64,000 nucleotides of DNA, taken from positions 248,001 through 312,000 of the forward strand of contig JBHGNT010000022.1 of NCBI GenBank assembly GCA_043228905.1, written 5' to 3'. Source of the DNA: Azolla caroliniana. Lineage: Eukaryota; Plantae; Polypodiophyta. This document shows, in pieces, positions 4,481 through 59,897 of the stretch. The notes under the pieces are model-generated. The model made no database searches. It was not told where the DNA came from and was given only the letters and a program-made list of their open reading frames with translations. Each line of letters starts with the position of its first letter. Positions within the stretch are counted from its first letter, which is position 1. The translations under genes were made by a program, and so were the position numbers.

Positions 4481-4496
4481 CATTAGTGGCTCTTGC

Positions 4497-23582: not shown

Positions 23583-26500
23583 TGTTGGGATTACGGTCCC
23601 TTCAGATGGGATGGTCGGATGTCGGAGATGAATGCCGACGAGCCCGGTTTCGGTTTCGGAACCGGATGATGAAGACCCCGGCTTCGGAGCCGGATGACGA
23701 ATGTACCCGGGGAGAGATCCGGATGCAGGGACATATCCGTGAATATGTTTGCTAAGGGCCCCTGAGGCTATAGTTGTAAATAGCCCCAAAGTCATATATG
23801 TATAAATATGACTTAGGGCAAACAGTTTTACTGTTGTTGATCATTTTTCTGTTTTTCCACTCAAGAGGAGTGAAGAGTGAGCAGCCGTGAGAGAGAGAGA
23901 GAGATAGAGCGTGAGAGAGGAAGAGGACGACGCCTCTTTGTATTTCCGCCGCCTGTGGCGAGGACAGCGAGCTCAAGGTCGTCGCCTTGCAGCTCGCCAT
24001 TGTATACTTCTCTGTGTATAGTGGTGGTTTGGAGTCTTGTACTCCCGTGGTTTTTCCCGTTTAGGGTTTTCCACGTTAATCCTTGCGTATTCGTGTTTCT
24101 CTCTGTGGTTTCCTATTTTCTGCTGCATTGATTCGCGCTTACTCGGTTGTGGCCGAGTGAAGAAGGAGAATCGAAGCGTCGATTCCCAACAAACTGGTAT
24201 CAGAGCGGGTTGCTGCAGAAAATGGAAGGCGGCGGCAGCGGGCAGCCGGGGATGATGGTGCTGACTGCGCAGAATTACGCCGACTGGAAGATCAAGATGG
24301 AGGATCTTCTGATTGTTCGGGACCTGTACGAACCGATTGACAGGTCGGAAATACCGAAAGGGGTACTTGAGTCGGAATGGAGGCTTCTGAACCGGAAAGC
24401 CGTTGCAACCATTCGGCAATACGTCGACGTGAGCGTTCTACAACATGTGGCGAACGACACCAACGCATATGAGATGTGGCGGAAGCTGTCGGGCCTCTAC
24501 GAGAGGAAAAATGCGTTGAACCGGACCTCCCTGATGAGGAAGATAGTGAATCTCAAGTACCGGGACGGCGAGAGTATGGTGGAACACGTAAGCACGTTCA
24601 TGGGATTCGTGAATTAGCTTGCGGCGATCAAGTTCCCGTTGGAGGATGCAATGCAAGCCATCATCCTGATGTGTACATTGCCGGAAAGCTGGGAGAACTT
24701 GGTGGTGACTCTCAGCACCTCCTGCACAGAAGATAACTTGTCCCTACAAACGGTAAAGACAAGTATTTTGAACGAAGAAGCGCGTCGGAGAGATAAAGAA
24801 CCGGCCTCCGACTCGAAGGCGCTGCTTACCGAATCGGATCGGGGAAGACAATGGAACCGGAGTCCGCAAAGACGGGAGAAGTCGGGGACCTGGTCGCAGT
24901 CAAGAGGAAGGCCCACATGCTTCCACTGTGGGAAGCCGGGGCACTTCCGAAAGAATTGTCGGCATTACCGAAAAGACAACGGAGCCGACGACACCGATTC
25001 GAAGAAGTCACCGGAGAGAAACGGTGCATACCGGGGAGCCACGGACCGGAGAGGTTCGGATCGGCGAGGGCAGGACCGGAAAGGAACAACGGCACTCGCG
25101 GCAAGTGAGGAAGAAATCATGCTCATCACCGAAGAAAGTGAAGTAAACATTGTCGGCGATGAGACGACCTGGGTGGTCGATTCTGGAGCATCGTTCCACC
25201 TGACCCCAGAGAGAAGATACTTCTCATCCTACACAGCCGGTGAGCATGGCTGTGTTCGGATGGGAAATGAAGGTACGTGCCGGATTGCCGGCATCGGAGA
25301 CGTGTGGTTGACAACCCCGACCGGATGCAAGATGCTGCTGAAGGATGTTCGACACGTTCCGGAGGTCCGATTGAACCTGATCTCGGCCGGGAGGCTAGAT
25401 GATGAAGGCTACACGGGTAGCATCCGGAACGGTGTCATGAAGTTCAGCAAGGGGAGCCTGATAGTGGCTCGGGCCCGGAAGGTCAACACACTGTACCTGA
25501 TGAATTCCCGGCTATGTCCGGAGGAGCTGAACGTGGCAGCCGACACTGCCGGTGAGCTGTGGCAGAAAAGACTGTGCCACATGAGTGAGAAGGGGATGAA
25601 GAGGCTTGCAGAAGACAACCTTATTCCAGTGAAGCATGTGCACCTGGAGAAGTGCACCGATTGCCTGGCCGGTAAGCAGAACCGAACCTCCTTCCACTCA
25701 AGGCCACCGACGAGACGTAGCGCACCATTGGAATTGGTGCACACTGATGTGTGTCAGGTAGAAACGAAGTCACATGGCGGAGCCCAGTACTTCGTAACAT
25801 TCATTGATGATCACAGCCGGAAGCTGTGGACGGCACCGTTGAAGACAAAGGACCAAGTGTTGTGCGTCTTCAAAGAACTCCACGCGAGAGTGGAAAGGGA
25901 ATCCGGCAAGAAGTTGAAAGCGATACGAGCGGATAATGGAGGGGAATACCGGGGGCAGTTCCAGGAGTATTGTCGCTCGAAGGGAATCCGACTCGAGTTT
26001 ACTGTGCCGAAGACGCCGGAACTGAACGGGTTGGCCGAGAGGATGAACCGGACCATAATGGAGAGGGTCCGGAGTATGCTGGCGCATGCGAAATTACCCA
26101 AGGGGTTTTGGGCTGAGGCAATGTCGACGGCGACATACGTGATAAACAGATCACCCTCAGTACCTTTGGACGGAGACACGCCGCAGAAAGTGTGGACCGG
26201 TAAGGAAGTGTCCTACCGGCATCTGAAGGTGTTCGGGTGTCTCGCATACGTGCATGTGGCAAAGGACCGAAGAGGAAAGCTAGATCCAAAGACCCGGCCA
26301 TGCATATTCCTCGGTTACGGCGATGACGAGTTCGGCTACCGAGTATGGGACCCGGTTGACAAGAAGATATTCCGGAGTCGTGATATCATCTTCATGGAGA
26401 ACAAGACACTCGCCGACTGGGAGTCGGAGAAGAAGATGAAGAGCTCCAAGTCAACCGGTGAGGATCAACTTTATGAGGAGCAGTCCCGACCGGCAAGGGA

Positions 26501-28902
26501 CCGGTTAGCACTCGAGGATCCGGCCGAAGACGGTGAAGAAACAAAACCGGCCGAAGAGGATGAAAATGATACCGGAACCGGCCCCGATCCCGAAATGGAT
26601 TCGGATGAAGAAGAAGAATCGGAAGAACCGGTTACCGAAGCTCCCGAACGGAGATATCCTCTAAGAGAGAGGAGGGCCCCCCGGAGATTTCCGGATCCAG
26701 AGCACGTGCTGCTAACCGACGAGGGGGAGCCGGAGAGCTTTGAAGAAGCAAAGCACGACACCCAGAGCCGCAGGTGGTTGAGTGCCATGCAGGACGAGAT
26801 GGATTCCCTGCATGAGAACCACACATATGAACTTGTGGAGTTGCCGAAAGGAAAGCGGGCACTTCGTAACAAGTGGGTGTTCAAGCTGAAACCGGGAGAT
26901 GCCGGAAACCCCCCGAGATACAAAGCCAGGATCGTGGTGAAGGGGTTTCAGCAGAAGAAGGGCGTCGACTTCGACGAGATATTTGCCCCGGTAGTGAAGA
27001 TGACCTCCATCCGGACGGTGCTGAGCATAGCGGCAAGCATGGACCTCGAGGTAGAACAGATGGACGTGAAGACGGCATTCCTTCACGGTGACCTCGATGA
27101 AGAGATCTACATGCAGCAACCGGAAGGATTCGAGAAGAAAGGGAAGGAGCACCTGGTATGCCGGTTGAAGAAGAGCCTTTACGGACTGAAGCAGGCTCCC
27201 CGGCAATGGTACCGGAAGTTCGACGAAGGGTACCTCAAAACGCAGTCCGACCACTGCGTGTTTGTGAAGAAGTTCGAAGGAGGAGACTTTCTAATACTCC
27301 TCCTGTACGTGGACGACATGTTGATCGTCGGACGGGACCAGGTCAAGATACGGATGCTGAAGAAGGCTCTTCACCGAACCTTCTCAATGAAGGACTTGGG
27401 TCCGGCGAGACAAATACTAGGGATGCACATCATCCGGGACCGGAGCAAGAAGCAGTTGTGGCTGTCACAGGAGAAGTACGTGACAAAGGTGCTTAAACGG
27501 TTCAACATGTCGGAAGCAAGACCGGTCGGATCGACCCTCCCGGCAAACTGCAAGCTGTCCAGCAAGCAAAGTCCCAAGACAAAGGCTGAAAAGGAGGATA
27601 TGATGAAAGTGCCGTATGCCTCAGCCGTCGGGAGCTTGATGTACGCCATGGTGTGTACGAGACCGGACATCGGATATGCAGTCGGAGTGGTGAGCCGGTA
27701 CATGAGCAATCCCGGCAAAGAGCATTGGAACGTGGCCAAGTGGATACTCCGATACCTGAAGGGCACGGCAAACGTGTGCCTCCGATTCGGCTCCGGTAAG
27801 CCCGAACTCGACGGCTTCACCGATTCGGATATGTCGGCTGATGCAGATACCAGCCGGTCCACATCAGGGTATGTGATGACGTATGCAGGGGGAGCCGTTT
27901 CGTGGCAGTCGAGGCTGCAGAAGACGGTTGCGTTGTCAACCACGGAGGCGGAGTACATGGCGGCTGTTGAAGCCGGCAAGGAAATAATATGGATGAAGGA
28001 CTTCATTAGAGAGCTCGGTATCCGGCAGGAGGAGTACCGACTCTACTGCGACAGTCAGAGTGCAATCCACCTTGCGAAGAACGCGGCCTATCACTCCCGG
28101 ACGAAGCACATCCAGCGAAGATATCACTGGATCCGGGAAAGGATAGAAGACAAGGAGTTCGTGCTGACAAAGATCCACACGGACGAGAACGGGTCGGATA
28201 TGCTGACCAAGGTGCTCACACCCGACAAGCTGGAAGCATGCCGGAAGAGGATCGGATTGGAGAGACATCCCATGCCGAAGTGAAGGGGGAGTTTGTTGGG
28301 ATTACGGTCCCTTCAGATGGGATGGTCGGATGTCGGAGATGAATGCCGACGAGCCCGGTTTCGGTTTCGGAACCGGATGATGAAGACCCCGGCTTCGGAG
28401 CCGGATGACGAATGTACCCGGGGAGAGATCCGGATGCAGGGACATATCCGTGAATATGTTTGCTAAGGGCCCCTGAGGCTATAGTTGTAAATAGCCCCAA
28501 AGTCATATATGTATAAATATGACTTAGGGCAAACAGTTTTACTGTTGTTGATCATTTTTCTGTTTTTCCACTCAAGAGGAGTGAAGAGTGAGCAGCCGTG
28601 AGAGAGAGAGAGAGATAGAGCGTGAGAGAGGAAGAGGACGACGCCTCTTTGTATTTCCGCCGCCTGTGGCGAGGACAGCGAGCTCAAGGTCGTCGCCTTG
28701 CAGCTCGCCATTGTATACTTCTCTGTGTATAGTGGTGGTTTGGAGTCTTGTACTCCCGTGGTTTTTCCCGTTCAGGGTTTTCCACGTTAATCCCTGCGTA
28801 TTCGTGTTTCTCTCTGTGGTTTCCTATTTTCTGCTGCATTGATTCGCGCTTACTCGGTTGTGGCCGAGTGAAGAAGGAGAATCGAAGCGTCGATTCCCAA
28901 CA
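23583..28902 (+). mobile_element. Young Tnt1-like Copia; 609-bp LTRs 23583-24191 and 28294-28902; TSD TGTAA
   Basis: LTRs are near-identical (two substitutions seen by eye); PBS TGGTATCAGAGC at 24195; PPT GAAGGGGGAG. Confidence 0.97.
24222..28283 (+). pseudogene. gag-pol: Copia gag-pol polyprotein, intact except for one in-frame TAG (24615-17) and a probable 5-codon deletion in RT
   Basis: ORFs 24147-24617 and 24639-28283 are in the same frame; CCHC, WVVDSGAS, IRADNGGEY, YVDDMLI and FTDSD motifs. KFD|EGY lacks the SFMxD seen in the paralogue at ~10445. Confidence 0.93.
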
Positions 28903-31900: not shown

Positions 31901-33034
31901 CAGTCGGCATGTTTGATACCTTCAATCGGACAACGACAAGGAGTATTTCTCTGATGCCTTCACAACATACCTTCAACAAGAAGGAATTCAGCGGGTGTTT
32001 CCTTGCTGACACACATCTCAACAAAACGGAGTAGCCGAATGAAAGAACTGGCATATACACGAGGTGGCAAGGGCATTAATGAATGAGAAACATCTGTCGA
32101 AATCATACTAGGCTGACGCGCTGAACACGGTCGTCTATCTAATGAATCAGAGCACAACATTCCCGATGAAAAGCCGCAAAAACTTGATCCGAAATCGGAG
32201 AAATGTATCCTTGTGGGGTATAAGTGCTTCAACCCCTCTACCAAGAAGGTACGCATGAGTAGAGATGTCATACTCAATGAATCAGCATCCTGGTACATAG
32301 TCGACTCAACTCCATCCGATCCAATCGAAACCGATTCCGATATAATCGACTGGGAGGAGGAGGATCGACTAAGGCCGACATAAGAAGAAAGTCCAATCTT
32401 AACCAGATTGAGTGGACCACAAGAGCCACCGAGTGACCAAAGCATGTCGCGGCCGAGTCCGAAATAGGACAAAGGAAAGGCCAAAATGCATGAGTACGAA
32501 GACTCAGATGGAAACGAATCGGATCACTCTCGCGATAGTGAGTACGGTGGATTGGATGTCCCTATCATGAGGACACCAAGAGCCGAGAAATCGCTCACGA
32601 AGACAAGTGAACAACCACGTCAATCCAGCCAAGAGAAGAACGTAGTTAGCCAATTCGGCTAGAAACACGTTCGCGTTCACAAGTGGAAGGATTGCGCATT
32701 CCACTTGTAGAATCTTCTTGAAACTATCCAAATACACCCTCTCTACAAAAATTGGATGCACTAGTATCACATGTTCCACAACTTGATTAGAATTTGCAAA
32801 TATAAAAATACAAGATAGGTCTACGAGTGGAGAACATTAGAAATCATGCAAGTTTGGACGTGTTGATAAGTTAATGTAGGCATAATAAAGTTCAACAATG
32901 GCTCAATATGTCACTAACAAGGGAAACACTAAGTTAAAGACTTATATTAATTTGGTAAGTTTTACAAAATAATGAGGTGTACTTGTATCTATACTAATAA
33001 AATGAGTTATAATTTATACTTTGACCCATACGTG

Positions 33035-33310
33035 CATGTATATAATTGTGGACAATGTAGGGTAGTGCACTTTAGGATAATGTGATTGGAATAACTAACT
33101 TATTAAAGTATTCAATACTTGAATTTAAAGTTGATCTAATCTATTCCTCAGTTTGTTTGTATGGGATCAAACCATATGTATATAATTGTGGACAATGTAA
33201 GGCAGTGAACTTTAGGATAATGTCATGGAAATAACAAACCTATTAAAGCTTTCATACCTGTATTTAAAATTGATCTACTCTATTGCTTAGGTGATTCACA
33301 CAGGATCAAA
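33035..33310 (+). repeat. Two ~140-bp subterminal direct repeats in the DNA transposon
   Basis: TATATAATTGTGGACAATGTA...TTTAGGATAATGT...GGATCAAAC at ~33039 and ~33179. Confidence 0.8.
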
Positions 33311-36300
33311 CTCCGAACGATAACGCAACTGGAACTACAAGCGTATAAAAACATGTGGATAACGCTAGTGGAATCATTATCAACACACTACACAATGTAA
33401 TTAGCAATGGAATACAAACATAATAGTTTTAACAATAGAAAACAAAGATCCATAATAACAACATGGACAGTCATGGCAACAATTGAGATCATGTTATGTT
33501 AAGGTTACCTTGGACCAAAATCAGCCTCAATTGAAACTAATTCATGTTTCTCCATAAATTTGGTAGTCAACTATGCACGCGATGAAACCAATGTTAGAAG
33601 TCTACTAACCAAGTATATAAAAATAAAATTGAAACATATAGAAGATTATAAAGAATAGAATCCACCAAGTAAAACCCAAAATTTGTATTAATAATGTGAA
33701 ATCCAAACAAATCGTTAGTGTCATTTTCTTCATAGAGTCTATTACATAGCAATCAATTCATCAATGTCATTTTCTTCATCATCTTGTGTAGAACTCTCTT
33801 CGGCTATACGTGCATTGGCTTCCCTTGTTAGCCGAGCCAATGAAATATCTTCTATAAACTCATCATCAAGCTCTATTAGCTGCCCCGGTTCGCCGGCTAA
33901 CGGAGGAATAGGCTCTCGGGAAGCAGGTTGAAACCTTTCTGTATTATCGAGGTTCTTTGCACCGACCTCCTCGTCCTGGTCTGGGCACTCCCACAAAGCC
34001 TTAATCCTCATATTTATAAATATAACCTACTCCTCGTCCTTCTCCAATGCAACTGTATTTCTAAAGAGCTTCAATGCACATGTAGACATTGTTCCTGTGA
34101 AGAAAGTAACAAGAAGAATTAGTTGTCAAACAAAAAAGATTTGGTATTGGTTATCTCAAGATCGTTACCCTAGTTTGAGGAATACTTGTGCCAGAAAAGA
34201 GATCTAATATCCAGTCTCCTTCTATAGAAAACATCTTGATCAAGCGCATCATAAGTCGTTGAGGTTTTTGATATGGGTTGACAAGTCCCTGTTCTGTTGT
34301 GGTGTCATTAGAATGCAATTTCCGTGTCACTATTGGCTGGATATACCGACAGATTTGAACCTCCCACTTCATTAGAATGCTCCTTGATTCTTTGTTTCTT
34401 AATTTCATCGAAGTAACCAACCGTGATGTATTCAATGGCATTAACGAACCGAAAAGTTGGCCCTCTATTTACATTGGTTTTTATCCTATAAAAAATAATA
34501 CATCGAGTTAAGAATAGATTAAACAACCTTAAGAAATGCAATATAGTGAAGGACACCTATAAATAATCCTTACCATGCAAGGTTCTCGATGCCATGGCAA
34601 CGAGATCTCAAAGCTTGAGCTACCAAGTACCCTTGGTCCATACTATGAATGACAACTATTCGCCACAAGGATGCAGTCGTTAGCTCAGCGAAATCCTTGA
34701 TCATCTTCTCCAACTGTTTAAACCTAAACGGTTCATCGTCGTATGATGACCCAACCATTCGAAATTCGTAAGGAATATCCGCAATCATTAGCGTATATTC
34801 CTTCTTTGGCACTTTTTGGATCAAGTCGACGACATCGCCGCAAACCACATTGTAGTAAAGATCTCTCGTAATATCTTTTTTGTGGCTAAATTTTTTAAAG
34901 GAGCCATCTTCCTCCATTTTGTACACCTTGACTAAGCGACAATCCTTTTCTTTTCTGGCTCGCTCGAGATATGCAAGGAAGGATGTACGGAAATTGTGTA
35001 TATCCTTAACTTCTCCTTGTTTCTTGCCACGACACAGTTTCTAATAGAAGCAATAGGACATCAAGTTTTATTATACAAGCTCTACATATGATGAAAGTGT
35101 AATGATAAACCACCAATACTAACCCAATCCTTGAATGCAATAAAATACTCCGATAATGCCTTATATGAAGACGTTAGAGGATAATCCTCGGTCACTTGTT
35201 CCCAAGTTATACATCCAAGTTGTTTCATCATAACTTCTTGGATCTTCATGTACACCTTATGACTGTAAAATTAGAAATCAAGATTAAAACTTTGAATTAC
35301 ACCATATAGACTTCAATATCAGTATTTGAAAGACTTACTTATTGAACTCAGTGACCATTTCTTCAAGGCTTAAATCTTTCGCCACAACCCTTGACAAAAC
35401 AAATACAAGAAGATGTTTGTCCTTATACCTTGTATCATTCTCCATAGAGACAACTTCATGTCGTCAGCCGCTTCTTCAATTGTCAAGTCAATTTTCTTGG
35501 CTGCTTGTGACTTTAACTCTAGTTGAGGGTCAACCTTACATTTCTTTTGTTGTTGACCCTTTACCTCCTTATTCTCCCACATTGAGAAGATTTGATCTTG
35601 TAGGTCCCATACTTCTCCATCTCTAAAGGCCAGTTGAAACCAAGACTCATATTTTTGGAGACTATTGGACTTAACATTATCATCTACCACAATACCGACT
35701 TCATGTAGACATTGACGTCATAGACCTGGATGTAGCTTCACACCAAACTTTTGTTTCACGTCCAAATACTCGTGGTGGAAGAACCTTATACGCTCAATCG
35801 ACAACATTTTCTGCCTATAGTCATTATCATTATTATGGTCCCGTGCCAATAGCTTTGCCTCTTCAGTTGTGAGCCCCACGTAAATTTTGCACCTCGTCAT
35901 ACTTGAAGAAGAAAGTCGTTGGATGTTCTCTCACAAGTTGCCGATGTGCCTCCGCTGAATGCGATCCACTAATGACAAAGTAATTATATTGATCATGCTT
36001 TCTAATATCAAAATCTTCAATGGTTTCACATTCTTCAGGATCTACCATAACAATAAAAGGCACCACAATGGCATGAGGATTAATTTTAATTTTTTTCTTG
36101 AGATTTTGAACATTCATGCGGTGTGGCTCTCTAATCTCAAGTGGTTTTCGTCCTATCTTTTCATCAATAGGGGACCGATGGATGTGTGTTATAGGAAAAT
36201 TAAACACTTGCTCTCTCCTTATCTTATTCTGCTCGGATGACAACACACCCGATGCCAGCTTAGCTCTTGGCGTCCCCTTAGTGTCCTCCTCTTCGTTTTC

Positions 36301-36575
36301 ACTTGATAAATCAGAGTCTGACATTTTGGTTGTCTTCTTCTTTGGTGGTCTTGATTGTACTTTAGATACCCTTTTTGTGGCCTTCACTAGGGAGGGCACT
36401 TCCTCCCTTAGAGTTACATGGCCTTGTATATAAGGCCTCAAGGTAACAATAAGGTTTTGTGAGCTTTCAAGATCTTTTTTGAATGCTTCTGGCCCACAAG
36501 ATTCCTTTACTAGAAGATCTTCTGAAAGGAACACTTTACGTACCCCCTTGGAGCACTCTATCATTACAAGTACGT

Positions 36576-39500
36576 TGTCGTGCCTTTCGGCTCCGGATCG
36601 TTTGCGTGAGTCGGGTGGGAACCACCGGGGTTTTGGACTAGGAGGAGGAAGAATTTGAGGCTAATCTAGTTATGAATATGAATAGATTATAAGAAAGAGA
36701 TATAGAAACTTGTGAATCCCACAAGTATAATTGTTTTAGTTTATCTAAATCGTAGTAATAAATTGAAATAATTTAGAATAGATTAGAGTAGATTGAGAAA
36801 AGAGATCAAACCTTGTGAATCCCACAAGTATTACATTAATCAATATTTATGTAAGAATATGAATTTAGATTGAAAGAGATAGATTATCTTAAACTTCGTG
36901 AATCCCACGAGTATATTTTATTGATTGTTGGTGTTTTAGGAAATATATCCAATTTCCCAAATATTTTTCACACACCTATTACATTGTGCTCCCCATCCTT
37001 ATGTAGTGATGGGAGAGACTAAGCATAGCTACATGCTTTTTTTCTAATATGTTCATGCACACTAAATGTGCATGTGATGCTTTTCTAATCCTTGCTTTTA
37101 TTTGCTAAATATAGTGCTCATGCACGCTAGATGTGCATGAGTCACTTTTTAGTCGCTTGCGTTTTTCTATAAAATATTCACGCACTCTAAAAATACATGA
37201 TTTACCTTTTAATAAAGGTAGGCGCAAATAAAGCACTTATAGTTATTAAATCTATTTATAGAACACTAAAGATAAGGTAGTGTAATGGTAAAGTTGGGGT
37301 TTGGCTACGTGGAGGTACAAGGTTCGAATCCTGCCCTATGCACGTGATAAATATTTTGATATTCTTATTTTATTTATTTATATGTAATTTAATCATTTAT
37401 ATTATTTTTACTTTTTCACGTAGTGTACGAAATACACTACGACACTCGCCCCCTCCGAACCCGCACATCCTCCGGTATGTGCCGAAGTTGCCGATGCTCG
37501 TTGTCTCCCCTTCATCCTCCGTTTGTCCCGCTATGTCAACTTTGTCTCTCCATTTTGAGTAGACCCATTCTTTCCACCCGAACCATTGTCGCCATCCGAT
37601 CCACCATATTCTTTGTTCATTCTTTGCATTGCCATGAGTGGTTGTCATGGTCCCTTGTGGTACTCTTGAGCATCTCGGTGTGTTGTCTCTCTCCACTCCG
37701 CGCTTGTCTTCCGTAGGTTCTACCCACGCGTCGATGTCGACCTCCGAATACGCGCTCGCTGTTAGGTCCTTGTGCGGCTTTAATGCATGCTTTATTTCTC
37801 GATGTTGCGCATGCGTCGTATTAGGCCGTAGCGCATGCTTCGTATTCCATCGTAGTGCATGCGCCGTATTACCCCGTAGTGCATACTTATTTTTGCACCG
37901 TAGCGCGTGCTTCTTTTTGCGCCGTAGCGTGTGCTTCTCTTTACGCCGTAGCACGTGCTTCTTTTGGTGCCGTAGTGCGTGCTCCGTATTACATGCTTCT
38001 CCCATCGTAGACCCGACCTTCGCGTTGTCATGCTTTTGTTTACATCGGAATTTCAGACGGATCATCTTCCATCCGAACCGGCTTCCGACTTTACCTTCCT
38101 TGTTGCCACCTCCCGTCTCTCCGGTCTCACGTTGGTTCTCGGACACAACCGCCGAAGTCTCTAGAATTAGTGGGTAGGAATCCTCGGTATTATCATCCTC
38201 CGTTGTTTCACCCATAGCCATATTCTCGGCTATCTCTCCGTCATACGCATCAGCTTCAACCTTTGATTTCTCTCCGCCACCTTCCGTCTCTTCGGTCTCA
38301 CGTTGCCTTTCGAACGCAACCGCCGGAGTCTCTAGAATCAGTGGTGGGGAAGTCTCGATATGGCCATCCGTCGTTGATTCGTCCATAGCCACCTTCGATT
38401 CGATGTCATCTTTCGTGGCAACCTCCTCAATCAAGTCCTCTTTGCTCTCTTTCACTGCATCAATTATGCTTACCCCTTTTTCACCCGATGTTTCGGACAC
38501 TTGTATTCTGAAATCTTCTTCTACACTTGGGTTATCGGCCTTATCCTTCGTCGTTGTTCTTTCGCAAGACAAGAGGGTAGCTTGTTTTACACCCTCTTCC
38601 GTCGCACCATCATGTTGTATTTCGGCCTTCATATCGGCTCCATCGTTTGTCTTCAATCGACCATCCTTCATCGGCCATGTTGTTGACAAGATTCTCATCT
38701 TCCTCTCATCATGTCTCCGGCATACCCTTTGGACTTCGGCCCAATCTTCGGTAAGACCATTCGCACCGTCATCGTCTTCGAGTTCAATCCCGATGTCCTT
38801 CCTTTCTTTCCGATCAATCGATCTTACGAACATTAGGACTTTGTCCTCCCCCACCAATCTTTGTTCCTGCTCCGAGAGTCGAGCAAAACGATGCTCGAAC
38901 TCTAGGAATGCTTGTGTTGCACTTTGGTGGGTCTTCTCCGATGCCACCCATTCGTCGAATTCTCGCCGATCTTGTCCCTTTGATCTCTTGTAATCATATG
39001 CCTCTCGTAAAGCTTCTTCGAATGACCCCCATGTCGAGTTTTGTTGCCGTATCTTGTGGATTCTCTCTTGTAGCTCATCCGTGGCCACCCGATTGAAGGA
39101 TGTCACTTGCAATCCTTCCGGTATCCCACATCGTATCATCTCTGCCTTGTAGTCATGTAGATAGCGTGATAGATCGTTTCCATTGAATTGTCCGTTTCGT
39201 TGTACGAGCCGCTTTACTACCGCCGTGATCTCCGACATCGCTTGTTGTTCTTGTAGCATCCGTTCGAACATCATCATCATCGTTATGCTCATCGCCTCTT
39301 GTTGATTCTCCATCTCCTTGCCACCCGCCTTCACGTCGGGTTCACCAACTGTGTCGTGCCTTTCGGCTCCGGATCGTTTGCGTGAGTCGGGTGGGAACCA
39401 CCGGGGTTTTGGACTAGGAGGAGGAAGAATTTGAGGCTAATCTAGTTATGAATATGAATAGATTATAAGAAAGAGATATAGAAACTTGTGAATCCCACAA

Positions 39501-40320
39501 GTATAATTGTTTTAGTTTATCTAAATCGTAGTAATAAATTGAAATAATTTAGAATAGATTAGAGTAGATTGAGAAAAGAGATCAAACCTTGTGAATCCCA
39601 CAAGTATTACATTAATCAATATTTATGTAAGAATATGAATTTAGATTGAAAGAGATAGATTATCTTAAACTTCGTGAATCCCACGAGTATATTTTATTGA
39701 TTGTTGGTGTTTTAGGAAATATATCCAATTTCCCAAATATTTTTCACACACCTATTACATTGTGCTCCCCATCCTTATGTAGTGATGGGAGAGACTAAGC
39801 ATAGCTACATGCTTTTTTTCTAATATGTTCATGCACACTAAATGTGCATGTGATGCTTTTCTAATCCTTGCTTTTATTTGCTAAATATAGTGCTCATGCA
39901 CGCTAGATGTGCATGAGTCACTTTTTAGTCGCTTGCGTTTTTCTATAAAATATTCACGCACTCTAAAAATACATGATTTACCTTTTAATAAAGGTAGGCG
40001 CAAATAAAGCACTTATAGTTATTAAATCTATTTATAGAACACTAAAGATAAGGTAGTGTAATGGTAAAGTTGGGGTTTGGCTACGTGGAGGTACAAGGTT
40101 CGAATCCTGCCCTATGCACGTGATAAATATTTTGATATTCTTATTTTATTTATTTATATGTAATTTAATCATTTATATTATTTTTACTTTTTCACGTAGT
40201 GTACGAAATACACTACGACACTCGCCCCCTCCGAACCCGCACATCCTCCGGTATGTGCCGAAGTTGCCGATGCTCGTTGTCTCCCCTTCATCCTCCGTTT
40301 GTCCCGCTATGTCAACTTTG
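36576..40320 (-). mobile_element. Young non-autonomous gag-only (TR-GAG-like) Gypsy; 869-bp LTRs 39352-40220 (5') and 36576-37444 (3'), plus a 100-bp terminal extension
   Basis: LTRs look identical by eye, with TGTCGT...ACGACA termini. PBS TGGTGAACCCGACGTGA (tRNA-Trp) at ~39331-39347; PPT GGAGGGGGCGAG; no pol. Confidence 0.92.
37397..39334 (-). CDS. gag: Gag-like protein (645 aa) with acidic and basic repeat tails, running into the 3' LTR
   Basis: FNGNDLSRYLHDYKAEM..VTSFNRVA Gag core; open frame; 24-bp tandem unit (KHALRRKK-like) at ~37790-38000. Confidence 0.8.
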   Translation of the reverse strand: MKAGGKEMENQQEAMSITMMMMFERMLQEQQAMSEITAVVKRLVQRNGQFNGNDLSRYLHDYKAEMIRCGIPEGLQVTSFNRVATDELQERIHKIRQQNSTWGSFEEALREAYDYKRSKGQDRREFDEWVASEKTHQSATQAFLEFEHRFARLSEQEQRLVGEDKVLMFVRSIDRKERKDIGIELEDDDGANGLTEDWAEVQRVCRRHDERKMRILSTTWPMKDGRLKTNDGADMKAEIQHDGATEEGVKQATLLSCERTTTKDKADNPSVEEDFRIQVSETSGEKGVSIIDAVKESKEDLIEEVATKDDIESKVAMDESTTDGHIETSPPLILETPAVAFERQRETEETEGGGEKSKVEADAYDGEIAENMAMGETTEDDNTEDSYPLILETSAVVSENQRETGETGGGNKEGKVGSRFGWKMIRLKFRCKQKHDNAKVGSTMGEACNTEHALRHQKKHVLRRKEKHTLRRKKKHALRCKNKYALRGNTAHALRWNTKHALRPNTTHAQHREIKHALKPHKDLTASAYSEVDIDAWVEPTEDKRGVERDNTPRCSRVPQGTMTTTHGNAKNEQRIWWIGWRQWFGWKEWVYSKWRDKVDIAGQTEDEGETTSIGNFGTYRRMCGFGGGECRSVFRTLREKVKII

Positions 40321-41204
40321 GCCGAATCTGCATCCTCGTAGTCAAATCGTAGAATAAGGCCATACATAAATGGGGTTTCCTTTCCAAGCTGCCCCCTCCC
40401 CCTTCTTCTTTGTTGTATACAATACGACTTTTTTCTTTGAGTCGACGTATTGCATACACCATTCCTTCTTCGTTAGATCATGGTCAGGAAGGTCTTCACC
40501 TCCAGTAGTTGCTACAAGTTTCTTTTGGCTAACCTCAATGTGTGGTTGAGATTTTGACTCCTCGTTGAAGAGAAACTTGTTTCCTCTCTTCATGGACTCA
40601 GGAGCTACTAGGGTCTGTGTTTCAATTGGAGAACCATGTATGCGGAGCTTTATCTTCTTCACAGGTCGGTCCGACAAGCTCTCAAACAACCTATTTAAGA
40701 AAGGACATGCGAAAACATAAGTTAGGTGGTCACGTAGATTAAGGTTGTATATTAAAATACAAATAAGTAGATGAAGAAATAAACTAGCAGGCAATTTGTA
40801 GTGAACTATAAATATCAATCATGCATTCAGTGTACATGGTAGTCCTATATTAAGAAATCTATTCTAGTAAGGGCTATTCAACTTAGAAAATATATATCGT
40901 AATAAGTATACAAGGTTATATATTGTCTTGAAGGGCAGGTATGACTTATATTGATTCAATAACCATATTGTAGATAATTTGCATATGGTAGACTTGAATT
41001 TGGTATCGTAAAGGTAATGTGGGTTATTTTCTACTATTTTAAGCTATAGTAGGCCATAAAACCCCTATAATTAAGGCCCCTTTTTAAAAAAAATTAAGGC
41101 AAGTCGACATAAAAAAGACTGATTTTGACAGACAATTTGATATCTTTTCTCACAATACTATTGCCCCAAAAACACAATATTCCTCTTTCAGGGTCTTCTT
41201 TTAT

Positions 41205-41907
41205 ACAAGAACTTGATACGCCGTATTGTGTTCCTGTATAAAGTTTGTGTCTGTACATGAAATTGATGCAGGGTATCGAGTTCGTGTATCAAACACATAC
41301 TTTACACAGGAACTCGTAAAGGTGTATCGAGTTCCGGTATAAAAAAGAGTTACATAACATTGGAACTCGATACGGTGTAGCGAGTTCCTGTATAATATTT
41401 GTGTTTTAGACAGGAGCTCGATACGCCGTATCAATTTCCTGTATAAAACACAAATATTATACAAGAACTCGATACGGCGTATCGAGTTCCTGTTTAAAAC
41501 GCAAACATAATTCAGGAACTCGATACGCCGTATCGAGTTCTTATTTAAAAGCTAAACTTTAAACAGGAACTCGATACGTCGTATCGAGTTCCTGTTTAAA
41601 AAGCAAAGAGAATAGAGGAACTCGATACGACGTATCGAGTTCCTCTTTAAAACCTAAACTTTAAACAGGAACTTGATACGGCATATCGAGTTCCTATTTA
41701 AAAAGCAAAGAAAACAAAGGAACTCGATACATACGCCGGTGTATCGAGTTCCTATTAAAAACCTAAAGTTTAAAGAGGAACTCGATACGCCATATCAAGT
41801 TCCTATATAAAACCTAAACTTCAAACATAAACTTGATACGCCGTATCGAGTTCCTGTATAAAGTTTGTATTTTATACAGGAACTCGATACGGCGTATCGA
41901 GTTCTTG
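41205..41907. repeat. Array of 14 palindromes CAGGAACTCGATACG-N-CGTATCGAGTTCCTG with ~20-bp A/T-rich linkers, 51-bp period
   Basis: Units 5-11 start at 41411, 41462, 41513, 41564, 41615, 41666 and 41717; later units at 41775, 41826 and 41877; four more degenerate units at 41205-41390. Confidence 0.97.
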
Positions 41908-42039
41908 AGTGACGAAACATATTTACAAAAAGGTCCACCACAATGTTAGAGGCCTACCTGGAGTCCTGGCGCTCGATTTTCTTTGAAGACATGGTTGATC
42001 GTGTCGAAGTGGAGGCGGAGATTGCACGTTCGTGCTTCG

Positions 42040-42137
42040 TGCTCTGTGTGCTCTGTTCGCTCTATGTGCTCTTGTGTGCTCTTGTGTGCTCTTGTGTGCT
42101 CTTGTGAGTGAAATATGTCGAGGTCTTCCTATTTATA
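42040..42137 (-). promoter_or_regulatory. Probable TATA box (TATAAATA, 42137-42130) and 5' UTR with CACAAGAGCA repeats for the methyltransferase gene
   Basis: TATA lies ~140 bp upstream of ACCATG (ATG at 41992) and is followed by a 10-bp tandem repeat. Confidence 0.6.
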
Positions 42138-42820
42138 GGGATTGACCACAGTGGTTAAAGTAACCATAGTCAACTTAACCAGGGTTGGTAAGCTTGAGGT
42201 TAGTTAGTTAGTAACCACAGTCACATTAACCAGAGTAACTTATGATTGCATTAATGATTACAAAGTCAAACTAACATATTGATGAATCTTTTATAGTCAT
42301 AATAACTTACAATGACTTTGAAGGTCATGAAGGACACAAAGATAGAGGTTCATGAATGAACCAATGATTGATTTCTGAAAGCAACATTTTTATGACTCTT
42401 AATGGTTGTGTATTAAAGATGTGGGCATGAATGAAACAATGATTGATAAGTCTAATATTTAAAATGGTGGGCATTAATGAGCTAGTGATTGAGAAGTTCT
42501 ATATCAAATATGGGTGCCATTAATTAGCCAATGATTTTAACTTTAATCCAACAATTTATGGCTTGGTAATGATTGTAATTATATTATACTTGATTTAATT
42601 TCATATAGACCTAGTTTAAGTAGTTATTGATATTTTAAATACAAATACTATATTAAAAATAATATTTGTTATGTATTGTATTAATATAATATTAAATAAT
42701 ATAGACATTATATTGAGGGAGGTTTTGTTTAGAGAGGAGTTTATGTTTAGAGAGGAGCTTATTAGTTTTTTGCCTTAGCCTAAGCACATAACTTAAAGAG
42801 CCCTATCTAGACCTTAAGCC

Positions 42821-44923
42821 ATGAGTGAAGATTCACCGTTCTCGATTGAAGAATATTGTTTGTCATCAGACTCATTGTTTTCTACCGAAGAGTATTGTTT
42901 GTCGACAAACTCACCATATTCTATTGAAGAATATTGTTTGTCAATAGACTCACCATATTCTATCGAAGAATATTGTCTGAGCTCATCTTCACCTACAGGG
43001 AATGTAAATAATGACACATGTGAAGGGTTCTCTATTGAAGAATACGATATTAATAAAGATACGGAAAATGAAGGTAGCGCCAATGAAACATCGAATAACA
43101 TTGGCGATGGTCACAACAAAGAATTAGATTGTAACAAGGTTACACCAACCTCTATGCAGGAAGAGAAATCTGGAAGCCCTATGCATATTAGAAGAATCCC
43201 ACGAAGAATTCGTCTGGCTGGATTTAGCTTGGTGACATCAGATAAACAGATTGGATTTGATGTCAAAAAAATATGTTGTGCCTTTGGTTGTATGTTTATG
43301 ATTGGAAAATCAAAGTTACGAGAATTAAGGCGATACTATTTTTCGATGACTGGTGATGAGCAAGACACTTACCTCGGGTCACATATGCAACTAGTATCTG
43401 ACAAATGTACGGGGATCAAAGTATCATTCGAGCATTATATCTTCCATGTGCAACAAATATGTAGAGTTGCATTCAAAATTGCGTTATGTGTTAGTAACAT
43501 GTGGCTACATAGAGTACAACAACGTCTACTTAGCAGGGATCATATGTAAAGAGGTTCCAAGTATGAAAGGTGCAATTGGAAGACATGTTATTGGTTGGAT
43601 GAAAAGTTACTTTCAGTTAAATTGTGAAGTAATGCCCACTACAGGTAGGATGCACCTTTCTGATAATTATACACGTCGGGAAGTTTATGATGTCTATCGA
43701 TCTGATATGGTGGACTCACGTAATAAGTCTATCACATATAGCCAATTCACAAGATTATGGAGAGCTCGGTCATATACACCACGCCCAAAAGTGTTACACT
43801 TGAAGGAGGTATATGACTTTAAGAGATATATATCAGATGGGGGTGGTGGGAATGTTAAAGTGCTTGCCCAGTTAAACAATATAAGATTCAATCACATTTT
43901 TATGATAAAGAAAAATGAAATAAGTGGTTCTACACTTTTGTATGCTAAACAATATTCATCTTCTACAACATGGGAACCTGAAGGTGGTTGCCAGTTATTA
44001 CTTTGTATGCCGAGTACAATTGTCCATGGAGCTAAGCAAATGCCAATTGAGAAGAAAGGACAGTTGCAGAGTGTCTTGGTATCAGAACAAAAACGGTCAT
44101 GGCTCCAAGCCTTAGAAGAAAAAAGAAAGCATATTGAGGCCGCCAAGAAATATGCCGCACAACAAGACACGTCATGGTGGGATGTATTTTATAGTGATCA
44201 GAAAGGAATTATAAACAATTGTGTATTTGGTGATAATTGGAATTTGGAAACGTCATTCACATGGTCCCTACAACATGATCGTGTAAATAGAACTCTGGAG
44301 CAACCACCAAATGTGATTAATGACAACTTGGTCCATCCACAACAAAGAGACATTTATGTGGGACCAAGGATGACCAAAGCAGCCGAAGCTAGATGGCAAG
44401 GCAATTTGCAAGAGCTCACGGCGGGGATGTTGATTGCAACGCCGGTTGATGAGAACTCACATGGCCACCAATTTTGGGTGGGTAAAATTCTAGAAGTGCT
44501 AATGCATGAAATAGAAAACACAATCAAGTCTATAAATGTTCATTGGTACAACACTAGAAGTGCAAATGCTTTTACAAGTAAGTATACATTGGAGATGATT
44601 GAATGCCCAACAAGAAGAGGAGGTAGGAAGAGGAAGTGAAACATTCCTAACACCTCGACCCTTGATATATCTGATGTGGATATCATCGTGTATGACTTCA
44701 CACTTACAAAAGCTGGACGATTAAGGAAGTCAACAATAGATATAATAAAATAAAAATTACCAAGTCTACACGGTGGCTCGAGTCAAAGGCAAACGAGATC
44801 TGCTACATATAATCTAGAGTCAAACCATTTGGTTTACGACGAAGATAATGCACTGATTGGTACATCCGAGAATGATGAGGAGGAATCGTCATTGTATATT
44901 ACTTATAGTAGTGATTCTCCGTA
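42821..44923 (+). pseudogene. Sola-like transposase remnant, catalytic core apparently deleted; N-terminal 13-aa tandem repeat
   Basis: CCxxxC...R..YF...EQDTYL...ICRVAFKIALCVS; W..YF...E.MP....LSD....VY..Y..D...SQFTRLW joined directly to P.V....VYDFK; C-terminal FTLTKAGRLRKST. Frameshift at ~43545, stops at 44637 and ~44751. Family assignment is from motif recall, not a search. Confidence 0.6.
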
Positions 44924-47900
44924 AAGGAGTGATCACGAATGTATATTTGGCTATTAAGTGTAACTACATTCCGCTTGTAACAAATTGAGTAATATAAAAG
45001 CATGTGTTTTGAATTCTTATGATTTCTAAAAAATTGTTTCTTATAAAATAACATTGGTTGTAAAGTTTGTGATATAAATTGAGAATGTAACTTTTTCAAA
45101 TTCCTCTTTTTTTAGTTACTTCTAAATCACGAAAATAGTGGATTTTTAACCTTTTTCATAGTATGTTTGAACATGTATGATACTGGTATCAATGTGTTTT
45201 GTAAAATCATTGAAAAAGCCCTAAAATCCACCAAAATTTTCCTTATCCTTCCATTTATGCGTAATCCTTCCACTTGTGAACGCGAACGTGTTTAGAATGA
45301 CTACTTGGCATATAATTATGCATTCATGATGAAGGTAGCGATAGTCAGACAACCGGAAACTTTTTCCGAAGTTGTGAAGGACCCCTGATGGGTCGAAGCG
45401 ATGAATGAGGAGATGCAAGCACTCTCCAAAAATGAGACATGGGATCTCATTCCCTCTTCACCCTACCAGAAGGCAATTCGGTGCCAGTGGATATACAAGG
45501 TGAAGTACAATACCGACAACATTGTCAATCGGTATAAGGCCCAGCTTGTGGCAAAGGGCTATGAGCAAGCGCACAAGTTCGATTACGAAGAGACCTTTAC
45601 TCTAGTGGCAAAGATGAGAACCATCTGAACCGTGATTGTGCTTGCAATAGCCAAAGGATGACACCTCCACCGCCAAAGAATGCCTTTCTCCAAGGTGAGT
45701 TAGAAGAGGTGTACATGGTACAACCACCTGGATTTCAGTCGAGTATGCATCTGACTACTATTTGTCGACTCAAGAAGCCCGTCTACAGACTCAAGCAAGC
45801 ACTGAGAGCATGGCATCGAAGATAACCCAATATCTTCACCAAATCGACTTCAAAATGTCCAACTCTGTTCATCCATAATGACTCCAGAGGAAAATTATTC
45901 ATCATAATTTATGTGGACGAACTGGTCTTTAGAGGAGAGCACATTAGGGATATCGAACATACCAAGGAGCTACTCTTGGCTTGATTCAAAATGACAGATA
46001 TAAAGAAGCTACATTACTTTCTAGGGATAGAAGTAATTCGGTCTCCAGCCAACATCATGATCTCCCAATGACACTATATTCTGAATCTTCTCTTCAAGTT
46101 TGGGATGATAGAGTGTAAGCCCATCGCTACCCCTCTCGATCGAAATCTAAGGTTCAATGTAAATTCCGCCATAGATGAGTGTGAGCCAACTTTCTATCGT
46201 CAGCTAGTTGAAAGCCTCTTCTATCTCACCATTACTCAGCCCGACCTCAACTATCTAGTCGGCATCCTTAGCCAGTTTATGCAGACACCAAGCAACATCA
46301 ATTTGTACTGTGCTAAGCGAGTGTTACGCTATGTAATGTTGGCATAAAAGGCCAACTCCTTCCAAGTAGTATCTGTCCGAGTGCGAACTCATCAATAAGT
46401 TAGGTCTTAGTATATAAGACAATACCTAACATTGTATAGAGTGATGAGTGATACAGAGTCGAACTGACAGTGAATTGTATCTCAAAGAGAGATTGAGAAC
46501 GAAGTAATAAAGCTTTCCAATAGATCTTGCACTATGTAAGTTCACGCCTATTCTATTTTTTGTTTGTTGTTTAGAACCAACAACAGATCCATACACATTT
46601 CCGCAAATCGCACTTGTTATCAACAACTGGTATCAGAGCAAATCTTTGTTGTTCGGCGGCAATTGACAACAGAAGAAGCTGAAAGAAAAGACCAGGTCAA
46701 AAATCTCAAATTAACAAAAAGAATATGGCTTCAACATCCGAAACAGGAGTTGAAATCAGAAAATTTGACGGCAAAAACTTTGCCTTGTGGAAGGAGATGA
46801 TGCAGGATGTGGTGATCATTTAAAGACAGGTCGAAGCCATTCGGCACAGCGAAAAACCGACTTCAATGACAACCGAAGAGTGGAGATAAACGGAGGAAAT
46901 CGCATGCTCCACCATCCGAATGCATCTGGCCGAAAACATTTATCTCAGCATGGCGAAAGAGATGACATCATTCTCATTGTAGGAGAAGCTACATGCCGTT
47001 TATGAAAAGAAGTCCTCATCATCGAAATTGATTTTGATCAAACAATTGTTCAACATGAAGATGAGAGAGACCGATCTGGCAACATCCCACATCAACACCT
47101 TCAACCGGGTGTTGTCTGAGCTCTCGTTCCAAGGGATGAACTTCAAAGAAGAAGTGAAAGCCCTTGCCATCCTATCAAGCTTGTCGGCGAGTTGGGAGGT
47201 ATTTTGCATGACATACGCCAATAGCCGACCAATCCTAAACTTGGACGAAACAAAGGGCCAAGTCCTCACAAAGGACATCAGGCAAAAATCGATGGGATTA
47301 ACCATCGATAAGTCGGTAGAAGCCCATTACTCACCCAAGTCGCTCGATCGACAGAGTCAAACGAAAGAACAAGCCGACAACGGTCAAAGTCGAGGCCGAT
47401 CAAGCGAGTACTACACACACTGTAGGAAAGTTGGCCACAATGTTTCCGACTGCTGGTCATTAAAAGGACAAGAGAGTGGTTGGTGATCCGAGTGGAATCG
47501 GGGACGTTCCGACTCGGATCACTCTCCAGTCAGCAACCAGATCAACGTTGCCAACACCCGATCTGGAGAAATCCTCTCGTTAGAGGACTAAATGATCGGA
47601 GAAGTTCTCTATAGTGCACAAGTTTCACACACGTGGCTACTAGGCTCTGGCGCCACATTTCACATGACCCCCAACATTGAATGGTTCTCGAACTATTCAG
47701 CCGACACTAGCGGCACAGTCCGACTGGGAAACGGGCAGGAGTGCAAGATAGCTGGAACCGGGGAGGTTCCCATCAGATTGCCAAATGGCAACACAATAAC
47801 CCTGCACCGAGTTCGGCACATACCCGATCAAAAGAAGAGTCTGGTCTCCATCGGCATGTTAGTTGAAGACGGGTATAGAACAACTCTACACGAGTCGACA

Positions 47901-58489: not shown

Positions 58490-58990
58490 AAACATGACAT
58501 ACACAATAGTAGCATTTACCACTAGGGTGAGCTAATTTCTAATACAAAGAAAGAAAAAAAAGGAACATAAGACTATCATAAAATTTTGCCCTGACATAAT
58601 TTCTAATAACAAAGAAAGGAAAAAAAGGAACATAACACTAACATAAAAATTTGTCATGACATAATTTCTAATAACAAAGAAAGAAAAAAAAGGAACATAA
58701 CACTAACATAAAATTTTGCCATGACATGACACAAACGAGAAGATATGACAAAATTAAGAATTGAACCCAAGACATAGACAATAGTAGCATGACAACTTAC
58801 CACTAGGGTGAGCCAATTTCTAATAATAATGAATGAAAGAAAAAGATAAAACAAATTTAACACTAACATAAAAATTTGCTACGGCACAACATTAACGAGA
58901 GAGAGATGAGAAAATTGGGAATTGAACCCAAGACATAGATAAAAGTACAATAACAATTTACCACTAGGTTGAGCTAATGTATAATAATAA
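58490..58990 (+). repeat. Degenerate local tandem duplications (A-rich)
   Basis: Repeated ATTTCTAATAACAAAGAAAGAAAAAAAAGGAACATAA and TTACCACTAGGGTGAGC units. Confidence 0.7.
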
Positions 58991-59897
58991 TTAGTGAAAA
59001 TAAAATACAAAAATTAGCATGCATTTTTCCCTTTTCTAACGTGTTCGTTTTCAAACGTTTGAATGCTTGCATGAACACATATATTACGTTCTATGCCTGT
59101 CATATTGTCTACTAGAAGAAACATATATCTATGGGTTTTCCAAACACAAATATGAGGTGACATCCTACTAGAAAGATAACATATTTTTTATTAAAGTTCT
59201 TGTTTGTGCTCCCTACAAACCAATCAATTTGCACCCTTGAATTTTTGGAAGATTCTTCTTAGGAAGCACAAAAAATATTATCTCACATAGATAGATATCC
59301 CTTCACCTTGTTTGTTACACATTATAGGGGCCCATCCGCAAAAACATGCAGCTCAAGGGTTGTCCACAAATCATTAACAATTGTTACTGAGCATGAATAC
59401 AAATTGTATATTATTGTGAGTTATTTTATTCTTCCCCTATTGAGTAATTTTACTACAAATTGTGATATTGATGTATAAGATCTTCCTAACACCACAGTCT
59501 AGTTTTTTTACTCTTGAGTCACGTGACATAACGAGAGAGTTATGGTTATTAAAGTTTCATTGTACATGTTATTAAGTGAGTTTATTTAGAAAACGCATCG
59601 AAAGACATATCAAGATAGAGGATTGTGTTTCTTTAGTATATGTTAATGGGTGCTTGTACAAGAGCTTGAAATTGAACTCTAGGCCAATGAATGAATTGTA
59701 GGTTCACAAGATTCGTTTTTTCTAAAAGTACAAAAAAATGTATATTAGCAAAAGGAGATAACAAAAGGCAAGTTCAAAATATTTCTTTTACATGGTCATT
59801 TGCGACCTTCTAATATCGATCAATTGTTATAGAAGAAAGAAGATGCATAAGATTCTTAAGAGCTTGATGTGGAAACATGCCGAATCTATGTTGTAAG

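Follow-up and report, generated by a model that had tools for sequence, protein, structure and literature searches.

In a 64,000-nucleotide stretch of Azolla caroliniana DNA (hereafter, the window), the predicted first intron of a transposon gene holds an array of 14 palindromic units repeated at a period of ~51 bp (41206..41907, no strand assigned). We consider it probable, on balance, that this array is a same-face loading platform resembling sopC/parS for the element's own predicted ParB-methyltransferase, which would mark element DNA. How might such a platform work? Dimers of the ParB-methyltransferase would bind the array on one face of the helix, as SopB does on sopC, so that the fused methyltransferase would be concentrated on copies of its own family, beside two divergent promoters. 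The enzyme would then spread locally and methylate element DNA, probably on adenine, and the methyl mark may help the element stay expressible, whether through resistance to silencing or through tuned expression. A bolder form of this proposal, which we advance only tentatively, is that the transposon rebuilt a bacterial centromere: ParB-methyltransferase dimers would load on the array in their own intron, spread, and write 6mA only on array-bearing copies, shielding the family from silencing. If true, this would give land plants an amino-methyl writer that is addressed by sequence and would take parS-like systems beyond chromosome segregation; it could also be developed into a compact module for directing epigenome edits. 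With its exact candidate site, its natural variation in spacing from three to six helical turns, and its intact protein homologs, the family makes the self-binding hypothesis directly testable.

An array in a predicted intron of a dead Sola-like element

Thirteen of the units are full palindromes, starting at 41206, 41256, 41307, 41360, 41411, 41462, 41513, 41564, 41615, 41666, 41775, 41826, and 41877. The fourteenth palindrome, unit 11, carries a central insertion of 7 bp that separates its half-sites at 41717 and 41740. A preliminary description of this DNA had reported the 14 palindromes at this period, an exact 51-bp spacing of units 5-11, and linkers of constant ~20-bp length, and all three observations were borne out in the main. 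The start-to-start spacings are 50, 51, 53, seven of 51, 58, 51, and 51, extending the exact run to units 4-11, and the linkers measure 20 nt in 11 of 13 cases. Outside the array, no sequence in the 64-kb window resembles the full unit with 10 or fewer mismatches; matches to the 23-bp core number 11 in the window versus 0 in each of 100 shuffles. Arms were also said to be more conserved than linkers, and in the window copy their mean pairwise identity is indeed 0.82, compared with 0.63 for linkers (0.70 when linker flipping is allowed).

Other parts of that description require revision. The palindrome had been given as 31 bp, whereas the unit conserved family-wide is 23 bp, and only 2 of the 13 full units contain a perfect 15-bp palindrome. 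The central base does not vary freely, as had been thought: among arrays with at least three units, the central triplet and its own reverse complement are both present in 21 of 22, and a change of central base mostly reflects inversion of the site (GCC/GGC, GTC/GAC). Retention of CpGs in the arms holds in part. Forty of 56 arm CpGs are intact in the window array, and the CpG observed/expected ratio is 1.85 in the array versus 0.39-0.87 in the rest of the element, but the arms do decay at CpG. Transitions at CpG make up 14 of the 43 arm mismatches, which suggests that the arms of the window copy were 5mC-methylated in the past and that the array is not immune to 5mC.

The array lies within a whole but broken, non-autonomous Sola-like DNA transposon of 12,629 bp (32664..45292, no strand assigned), which is flanked on the window by copia-like retroelement sequence. 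Its left terminal inverted repeat (TIR; 32664..32699, plus strand) is 36 bp long, lacks the array motif, and is identical to the right TIR (45257..45292, minus strand) at 35 of 36 positions. The 4-bp target-site duplication (TSD) TAGA occupies 32660..32663 (plus strand), with its second copy at 45293-45296, and the same termini recur in related loci. A 30-bp hairpin overlaps the TIR in the left subterminal region (32694-32709) and is also found in L001 (4871). Elsewhere, the window holds an apparently intact copia-type element (23583-28593), which has a frame of 1214 aa and whose terminal repeats are identical across 300 nt, and an AT-rich segment with tandem repeats of 65 bp and 161 bp (58533-58999).

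The ParB-methyltransferase gene is read from the minus strand. A predicted TATA-like box (42128..42138), similar to the box preceding exon 1 in L006, L008, and L012, is followed by a predicted coding exon 1 of 35 nt (41958..41992) that encodes basic residues and ends at a GT donor, much like the short exon and donor of relatives. The intronic location originally assigned to the array is supported by a predicted GT..AG intron 1 of 1267 bp (40691..41957; GT at 41957, AG at 40691) and by a like layout in relatives, both read from sequence. About 50 bp separate the exon 1 donor from the array, which in turn lies ~0.9 kb away from the start of the transposase. The 5' part of exon 2 (40321..40690), recognized by tblastn to residues 1-95 of the homolog P0001, is frameshifted. 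A young LTR retroelement with identical 969-nt repeats, foreign to the system, interrupts the exon (36576..40320, minus strand); its interior has one frame of 645-679 aa without a Pfam match, and it carries a 65-bp doublet in the LTR and a 24-bp repeat (37807-37983). The 3' part of exon 2 (35338..36575) encodes a ParB/Srx-like N-terminal domain and a helical domain similar to a ParB DNA-binding domain; its reading frame in this copy is broken by frameshifts and an in-frame stop codon. Two methyltransferase exons follow, the first with catalytic motif IV, DIPY (34570..35040), and the second with SAM-binding motif I (34151..34468; Pfam N6_N4_Mtase, E 1.2e-8).

Divergent from this gene is a plus-strand transposase gene encoding a DUF7869 domain (42821..44639), which we take to mark a Sola transposase. 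In the window it is frameshifted, and near 43765 its catalytic core has lost ~686 bp; at its N-terminus, a 39-bp tandem repeat (42848-42976) encodes a 'SIEEY'-type peptide, and similar repeats occur in relatives. The complete element contains the transposase, the ParB-methyltransferase, and the inserted LTR element only, with no ParA gene. The LTR insertion, the frameshifts, and the stop in exon 2 make the window copy a dead one. It supplies neither protein, and its only possible role is as a target in trans.

Conservation and helical spacing of the sites

Searching with the alignment of the ParB region yielded 161 relatives, 80 of which were kept as loci; when these and the window were grouped at 90% identity, 45 clusters resulted. 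Every family locus was recovered via its ParB gene. The array is present in other family members, with a site upstream of exon 2 in 35 of the 39 loci that have at least 500 nt of upstream DNA (24 of 25 clusters). In all, 212 sites fall in 42,553 upstream nt versus 17 in 287,135 nt elsewhere, and 11 of these 17 belong to one second cluster in L011. The four site-less loci appear to lack the homologous region: homology ends before the array position in L009, the transposase is joined directly to the middle of the ParB exon in L059, and the match starts only at residues 223 and 192 in L069 and L077, respectively. In 15 sequences inspected, a short exon with a GT donor precedes the first site, L057 being an unclear case. 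The second cluster of L011 (L011:4763-5657) lies in AT-rich DNA beyond the matched element, and its 11 sites are of the type typical of another clade, AAAAT(C/T)CGATGCA. Its spacings are irregular, many of them near whole helical turns (52, 63, 72, 63, 124), and it is possibly a non-autonomous carrier or decoy of sites.

From 159 units in 25 clusters, the family consensus is AA-N-TCGATRC-NNN-GYATCGA-N-TT (23 bp). Positions ±10 and ±11 (AA/TT), which were absent from the search motif, carry 1.3-1.5 bits of information, while ±9, ±1, and the center carry at most 0.33; the ±9 pair is nevertheless symmetric in 138 of 159 units. Such a gapped, base-specific profile resembles a protein site. The number of sites per array ranges from 1 to 15. 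The preliminary description had proposed TCGA as a methylation target, an idea weakened by four clusters in which TCCGAT occupies this position. Neither the exact unit nor a degenerate pattern of two sites had any match in the prokaryotic genomes and viral contigs searched.

How strongly are the sites retained? They persist even though synonymous divergence (dS) in the ParB exon has reached saturation for 6 of the 9 pairs compared, and dN/dS is 0.03-0.05 in the other three; two pairs that include the dead window copy give 0.08-0.12. Between the introns of the window and L049, the array is the sole part that aligns. The family is high-copy, with 399-5469 contigs per run matching a 2.5-kb segment that includes the array in four DNA runs. 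The preliminary description had suggested comparing arms with linkers across copies, and this comparison favors the arms: in units 6-8, variants at a frequency of at least 8% in three runs occur at none of the 69 core positions, at 16 of the 40 positions in linkers, and at 6 of the 24 in outer arms, counts that are biased in favor of the core since contigs were placed at the best-fitting unit and rare variants dropped. No indels are listed for units 6-8 in the run contigs (2153-2621 contigs per run). The single candidate RNA run contributed no contigs over the array, a result that speaks neither for nor against expression or splicing.

The distances between sites group at 3, 4, 5, or 6 helical turns. 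Across 76 cluster-unique spacings no longer than 140 nt, a period of 10.25-10.35 bp fits best, and 0 of 2000 jittered sets equaled it; with the 31 distinct values alone and a free period, 17 of 2000 did. Since long spacings may sum over missed sites, the test was rerun with a relaxed motif, taking only spacings between 25 and 66 nt. Sixty-two of 65 spacings, and 15 of 17 distinct values, deviated by no more than 2.5 nt from a multiple of 10.3. The spacing classes are 30-34, 39-43, 49-54, 56, and 63, with none at 35-38 or 44-48, and mixed classes within single arrays are common (32/40, 50/31, 51/40). The p-values of these tests overstate independence, as the clusters share ancestry.

A further 9-nt motif, TGTACGGAC, lies ~15-25 nt past the intron 1 donor in 11 of 81 sequences from distant clades (L006:3731, L008:3605, L012:520, L026:4035, L029:3595, L033:6667, L036:6138, L045:3552, L046:792, L049:3660, and L057:3683), with a degenerate counterpart at ~41934-41943 in the window. 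We regard it as a second candidate binding or splicing signal.

The predicted ParB-methyltransferase and the transposase

The idea, raised first in the preliminary description, that the array offers same-face sites to a dimeric ParB-like protein draws good indirect support from site conservation, helical spacing, a ParB-like predicted fold, and a homodimer model. A model of P0001 residues 215-542 (pLDDT 84) has as its top matches ParB/Noc (Foldseek E 6e-6) and PadC, with which it aligns over 96 residues (Z 9.9, rmsd 2.9). When the helical domain, a candidate helix-turn-helix DNA-binding domain behind the N-terminal one, was folded alone, the DNA-binding domains of KorB, KorB, Spo0J, and ParB led 48,161 chains (Z 5.9-3.9, rmsd 3.8-4.8, 93-97 residues aligned). 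KorB, Spo0J, ParB, and SopB DNA-binding domains account for 6 of the top 7 matches, at middling Z values of 3.7-5.9; by Foldseek, the domain has no significant match (best E ~1). The homodimer model scored 0.54 against 0.00 for the best control, with at least 35% of contacts shared between runs and a pLDDT of 71-73. Of the solved homodimers used for calibration, 21 of 30 reached this mark, whereas 0 of 23 monomers did; for eukaryotes the figure was 17 of 29, and just 1 of 7 where no older solved relative exists, so that the pass may reflect memory of solved ParB dimers. These models predict a ParB-like fold for the protein, with a DNA-binding domain whose match is weak, and a homodimeric state.

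Sequence searches gave little guidance on the ParB region. Searching PDB sequences with its profile returned nothing meaningful, Pfam and NCBIfam did not recognize it, and in the ESM Atlas eukaryotic unnamed and DUF3723 clusters came first, and a ParB_N cluster did not appear until rank 29 (0.91; 35% of members). The ParB CTP-binding motif GERRxRA (PMC7333895, as given in the available text) is absent, and the family sequence reads GGSHSAEARR instead, leaving clamp sliding unsupported. Site variants follow protein clades (tree of 28 rows, with four short-coverage clusters left out) only as common descent predicts, and just one protein column tracks the A/G site variant; we therefore do not claim co-evolution. 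Searches for viral relatives of the ParB-methyltransferase protein found none. Named protein homologs come from Ceratopteris, Chara, Riccia, and Ginkgo; the homolog P0141 carries a SAM (sterile alpha) domain.

The order of motifs in the methyltransferase, with motif IV (DIPY exon) preceding motif I (DLFSG exon), places it in the beta class (Pfam PF01555, E 1.2e-8). DIPY is present in 46 of 50 loci and departs from the canonical DPPY. The nearest solved relatives of the Ginkgo homolog P0023 are M.RsrI, M.MboIIA, and CcrM. Given the Asp-type motif IV and these nearest adenine enzymes, the product is likely 6mA, with 4mC also possible. Purifying selection on the ParB-methyltransferase protein is strong, with dN of 0.04-0.12 at dS from 0.3 to saturated.

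The transposase is linked in 14 loci, upstream and on the minus strand, and is conserved. All 4 relatives tested match DUF7869 (E ~1e-52), and three invariant Asp-bearing blocks, which hold the presumed catalytic residues, occur in 7 of 7 aligned relatives; this core is deleted in the window copy. The element shows TAGA on both sides, a 36-bp TIR, and, in relatives, a DDD-type transposase, in agreement with published Sola superfamily criteria, which include a 4-bp TSD and TIRs (PMC10741241, in its available parts). L023 and L025 have intact 897-aa transposase frames yet only one site each, and L033 has two sites; either a long array is dispensable or these arrays collapsed in assembly.

Alternative explanations and related systems

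Could the same protein use the same sites for another purpose? As an operator, the array would let the ParB-like protein repress or modulate both its own promoter and that of the divergent transposase gene in the manner of KorB, with methylation secondary or directed elsewhere, for example at host DNA. The nearness of the array to exon 1 and to the transposase start fits such a role, as does the top rank of KorB, a repressor according to PDB titles, among matches of the helical domain; moreover, one site would be enough in L023 and L025. We judge this reading unlikely all the same, as it leaves the strong selection on the fused methyltransferase and up to 15 phased sites unexplained. That a different protein, the transposase or a host transcription factor, binds the sites as an internal enhancer of synapsis or expression seems less probable still. 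Internal transposase-binding repeats are common in DNA transposons, and the transposase is both linked and conserved here. Yet the array motif is missing from both TIRs, from subterminal DNA, and from the rest of the window, and inverted-repeat arrays accompany ParB genes into a different transposase family, Plavaka, in the accessible account of those elements. The transposase, which the preliminary description had offered as an alternative binder, is accordingly disfavored, and we prefer the ParB-like protein because the TIRs lack the motif.

The remaining explanations require no DNA-binding protein. The array might be a neutral satellite shaped by palindrome-driven inversion, slippage, and conversion, its 10-bp steps arising from chromatin-biased indels. 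Sites and linkers do flip frequently, the weakly conserved ±9 positions are mostly paired (138 of 159 units), and copy number varies from 1 to 15, all of which such a process would produce. It would not produce the same bases at fixed positions across clades with saturated synonymous sites, or conserved sites within an intron whose remainder does not align, and we consider it very improbable. Least probable, in our estimate, is a hairpin RNA or small RNAs released from the spliced intron. Minus-strand RNA of the array folds into long stems (z = -36), as expected of any such array. At pairs 2-11, mismatches show no G-U bias (40 G-U vs 43 A-C), so that base identity rather than pairing is what is kept across clades, and the spacing is tied to the helical repeat of DNA. 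None of 40 Rfam matches reached its gathering score; those to miRNAs were rejected as generic hairpins below these scores. A hairpin or small-RNA source, also raised in the preliminary description, is thus disfavored as the selected function, and any small RNAs from the array may be a by-product.

How does a ParB-methyltransferase loading platform compare with known systems? The comparisons that follow rest on parts of the cited papers. The pairing of Sola1 with a ParB-methyltransferase has already been put forward as a hypothesis in Ectocarpus, as have ParB genes beside inverted-repeat arrays in red algae. In Sola1-1_Ec32, a gene on the strand opposite the Sola1 transposase encodes a ParB-like domain fused to a 4mC/6mA methyltransferase, and the authors propose self-binding and self-modification (PMC12477816). 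That element shares with ours the opposite-strand gene, AAC termini, and a 4-bp TSD that tends to end in A, a likeness drawn from its description; it differs in coming from a brown alga and in having a length of 21.5 kb and a 282-bp TIR. The main text of that paper does not contain the string 'palindrom', and the parts examined describe no binding site or array. The red algal Plavaka elements PAG3/PAG2 have a ParB-like accessory gene beside tandem inverted-repeat arrays, and the cassette is proposed to bind and modify its own element (bioRxiv 10.1101/2025.02.11.637652). Unlike the family described here, they use an EnSpm/Plavaka transposase, their ParB domain is fused to a 2OG oxygenase, and their methylase is a separate SET-fused gene. 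The Plavaka arrays are adjacent to the gene and not stated to be intronic, and the parts of the preprint examined do not mention phasing.

The closest bacterial parallels are sopC/SopB and parS/ParB. In F plasmid sopC, SopB binds repeats with a 43-bp period, equal to four helical turns (PMC3177203). These systems share with the array tandem direct repeats containing inverted-repeat sites, whole-turn spacing, a ParB-family fold, and a variable copy number (3-17) (PMC3177203, PMC7333895). Unlike their 16-bp site, ours is 23 bp and gapped, lies in a eukaryotic intron, and is paired with a protein fused to a methyltransferase; a ParA gene, a segregation role, and GERRxRA are all lacking here. Among plant transposons, the proven functional analogue lies in VANDAL elements of Arabidopsis, whose anti-silencing protein VANC was shown by experiment to induce loss of 5mC (PMC5735166), and there too a transposon protein goes with short motifs amplified as tandem repeats in the element's own introns and non-coding parts. 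VANDAL is of the Mutator type, however, with non-palindromic motifs of 8-9 bp that diverge between families, and VANC removes 5mC, whereas the protein here is predicted from sequence to write a mark. The Pfam search of family proteins gave no match to VANC. The array resembles both the sopC/parS-ParB platform and VANC targeting, is a member of neither, and is a variant of the recently proposed kind. Searches for a land-plant or phased version returned the two algal papers as the only relevant ones, and we found no paper on the land-plant family, the 23-bp site, or the phasing, although subscription papers or the Bostrychia supplements may hold such reports.

Other transposons and host genes use related enzymes. 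DAM-carrying retrotransposons show elevated 6mA on their own copies (bioRxiv 10.64898/2026.05.21.726589); like the protein described here, theirs is a prokaryote-type amino-methyltransferase, but the carriers are retroelements with an NPP-type motif, and the available text does not mention ParB. Further links between ParB and methyltransferases, none involving this Sola-like element in the accessible portion, are described in PMC4738411. The 4mC enzymes N4CMT (PMC8885841) and MpDN4MT1 (bioRxiv 10.1101/2021.02.12.428880), likewise of prokaryotic type, are host genes with SPPY at the place of DIPY, according to the parts of those reports examined. In a seed plant, the Ginkgo ParB-methyltransferase homolog P0023 reads DIPH at motif IV.
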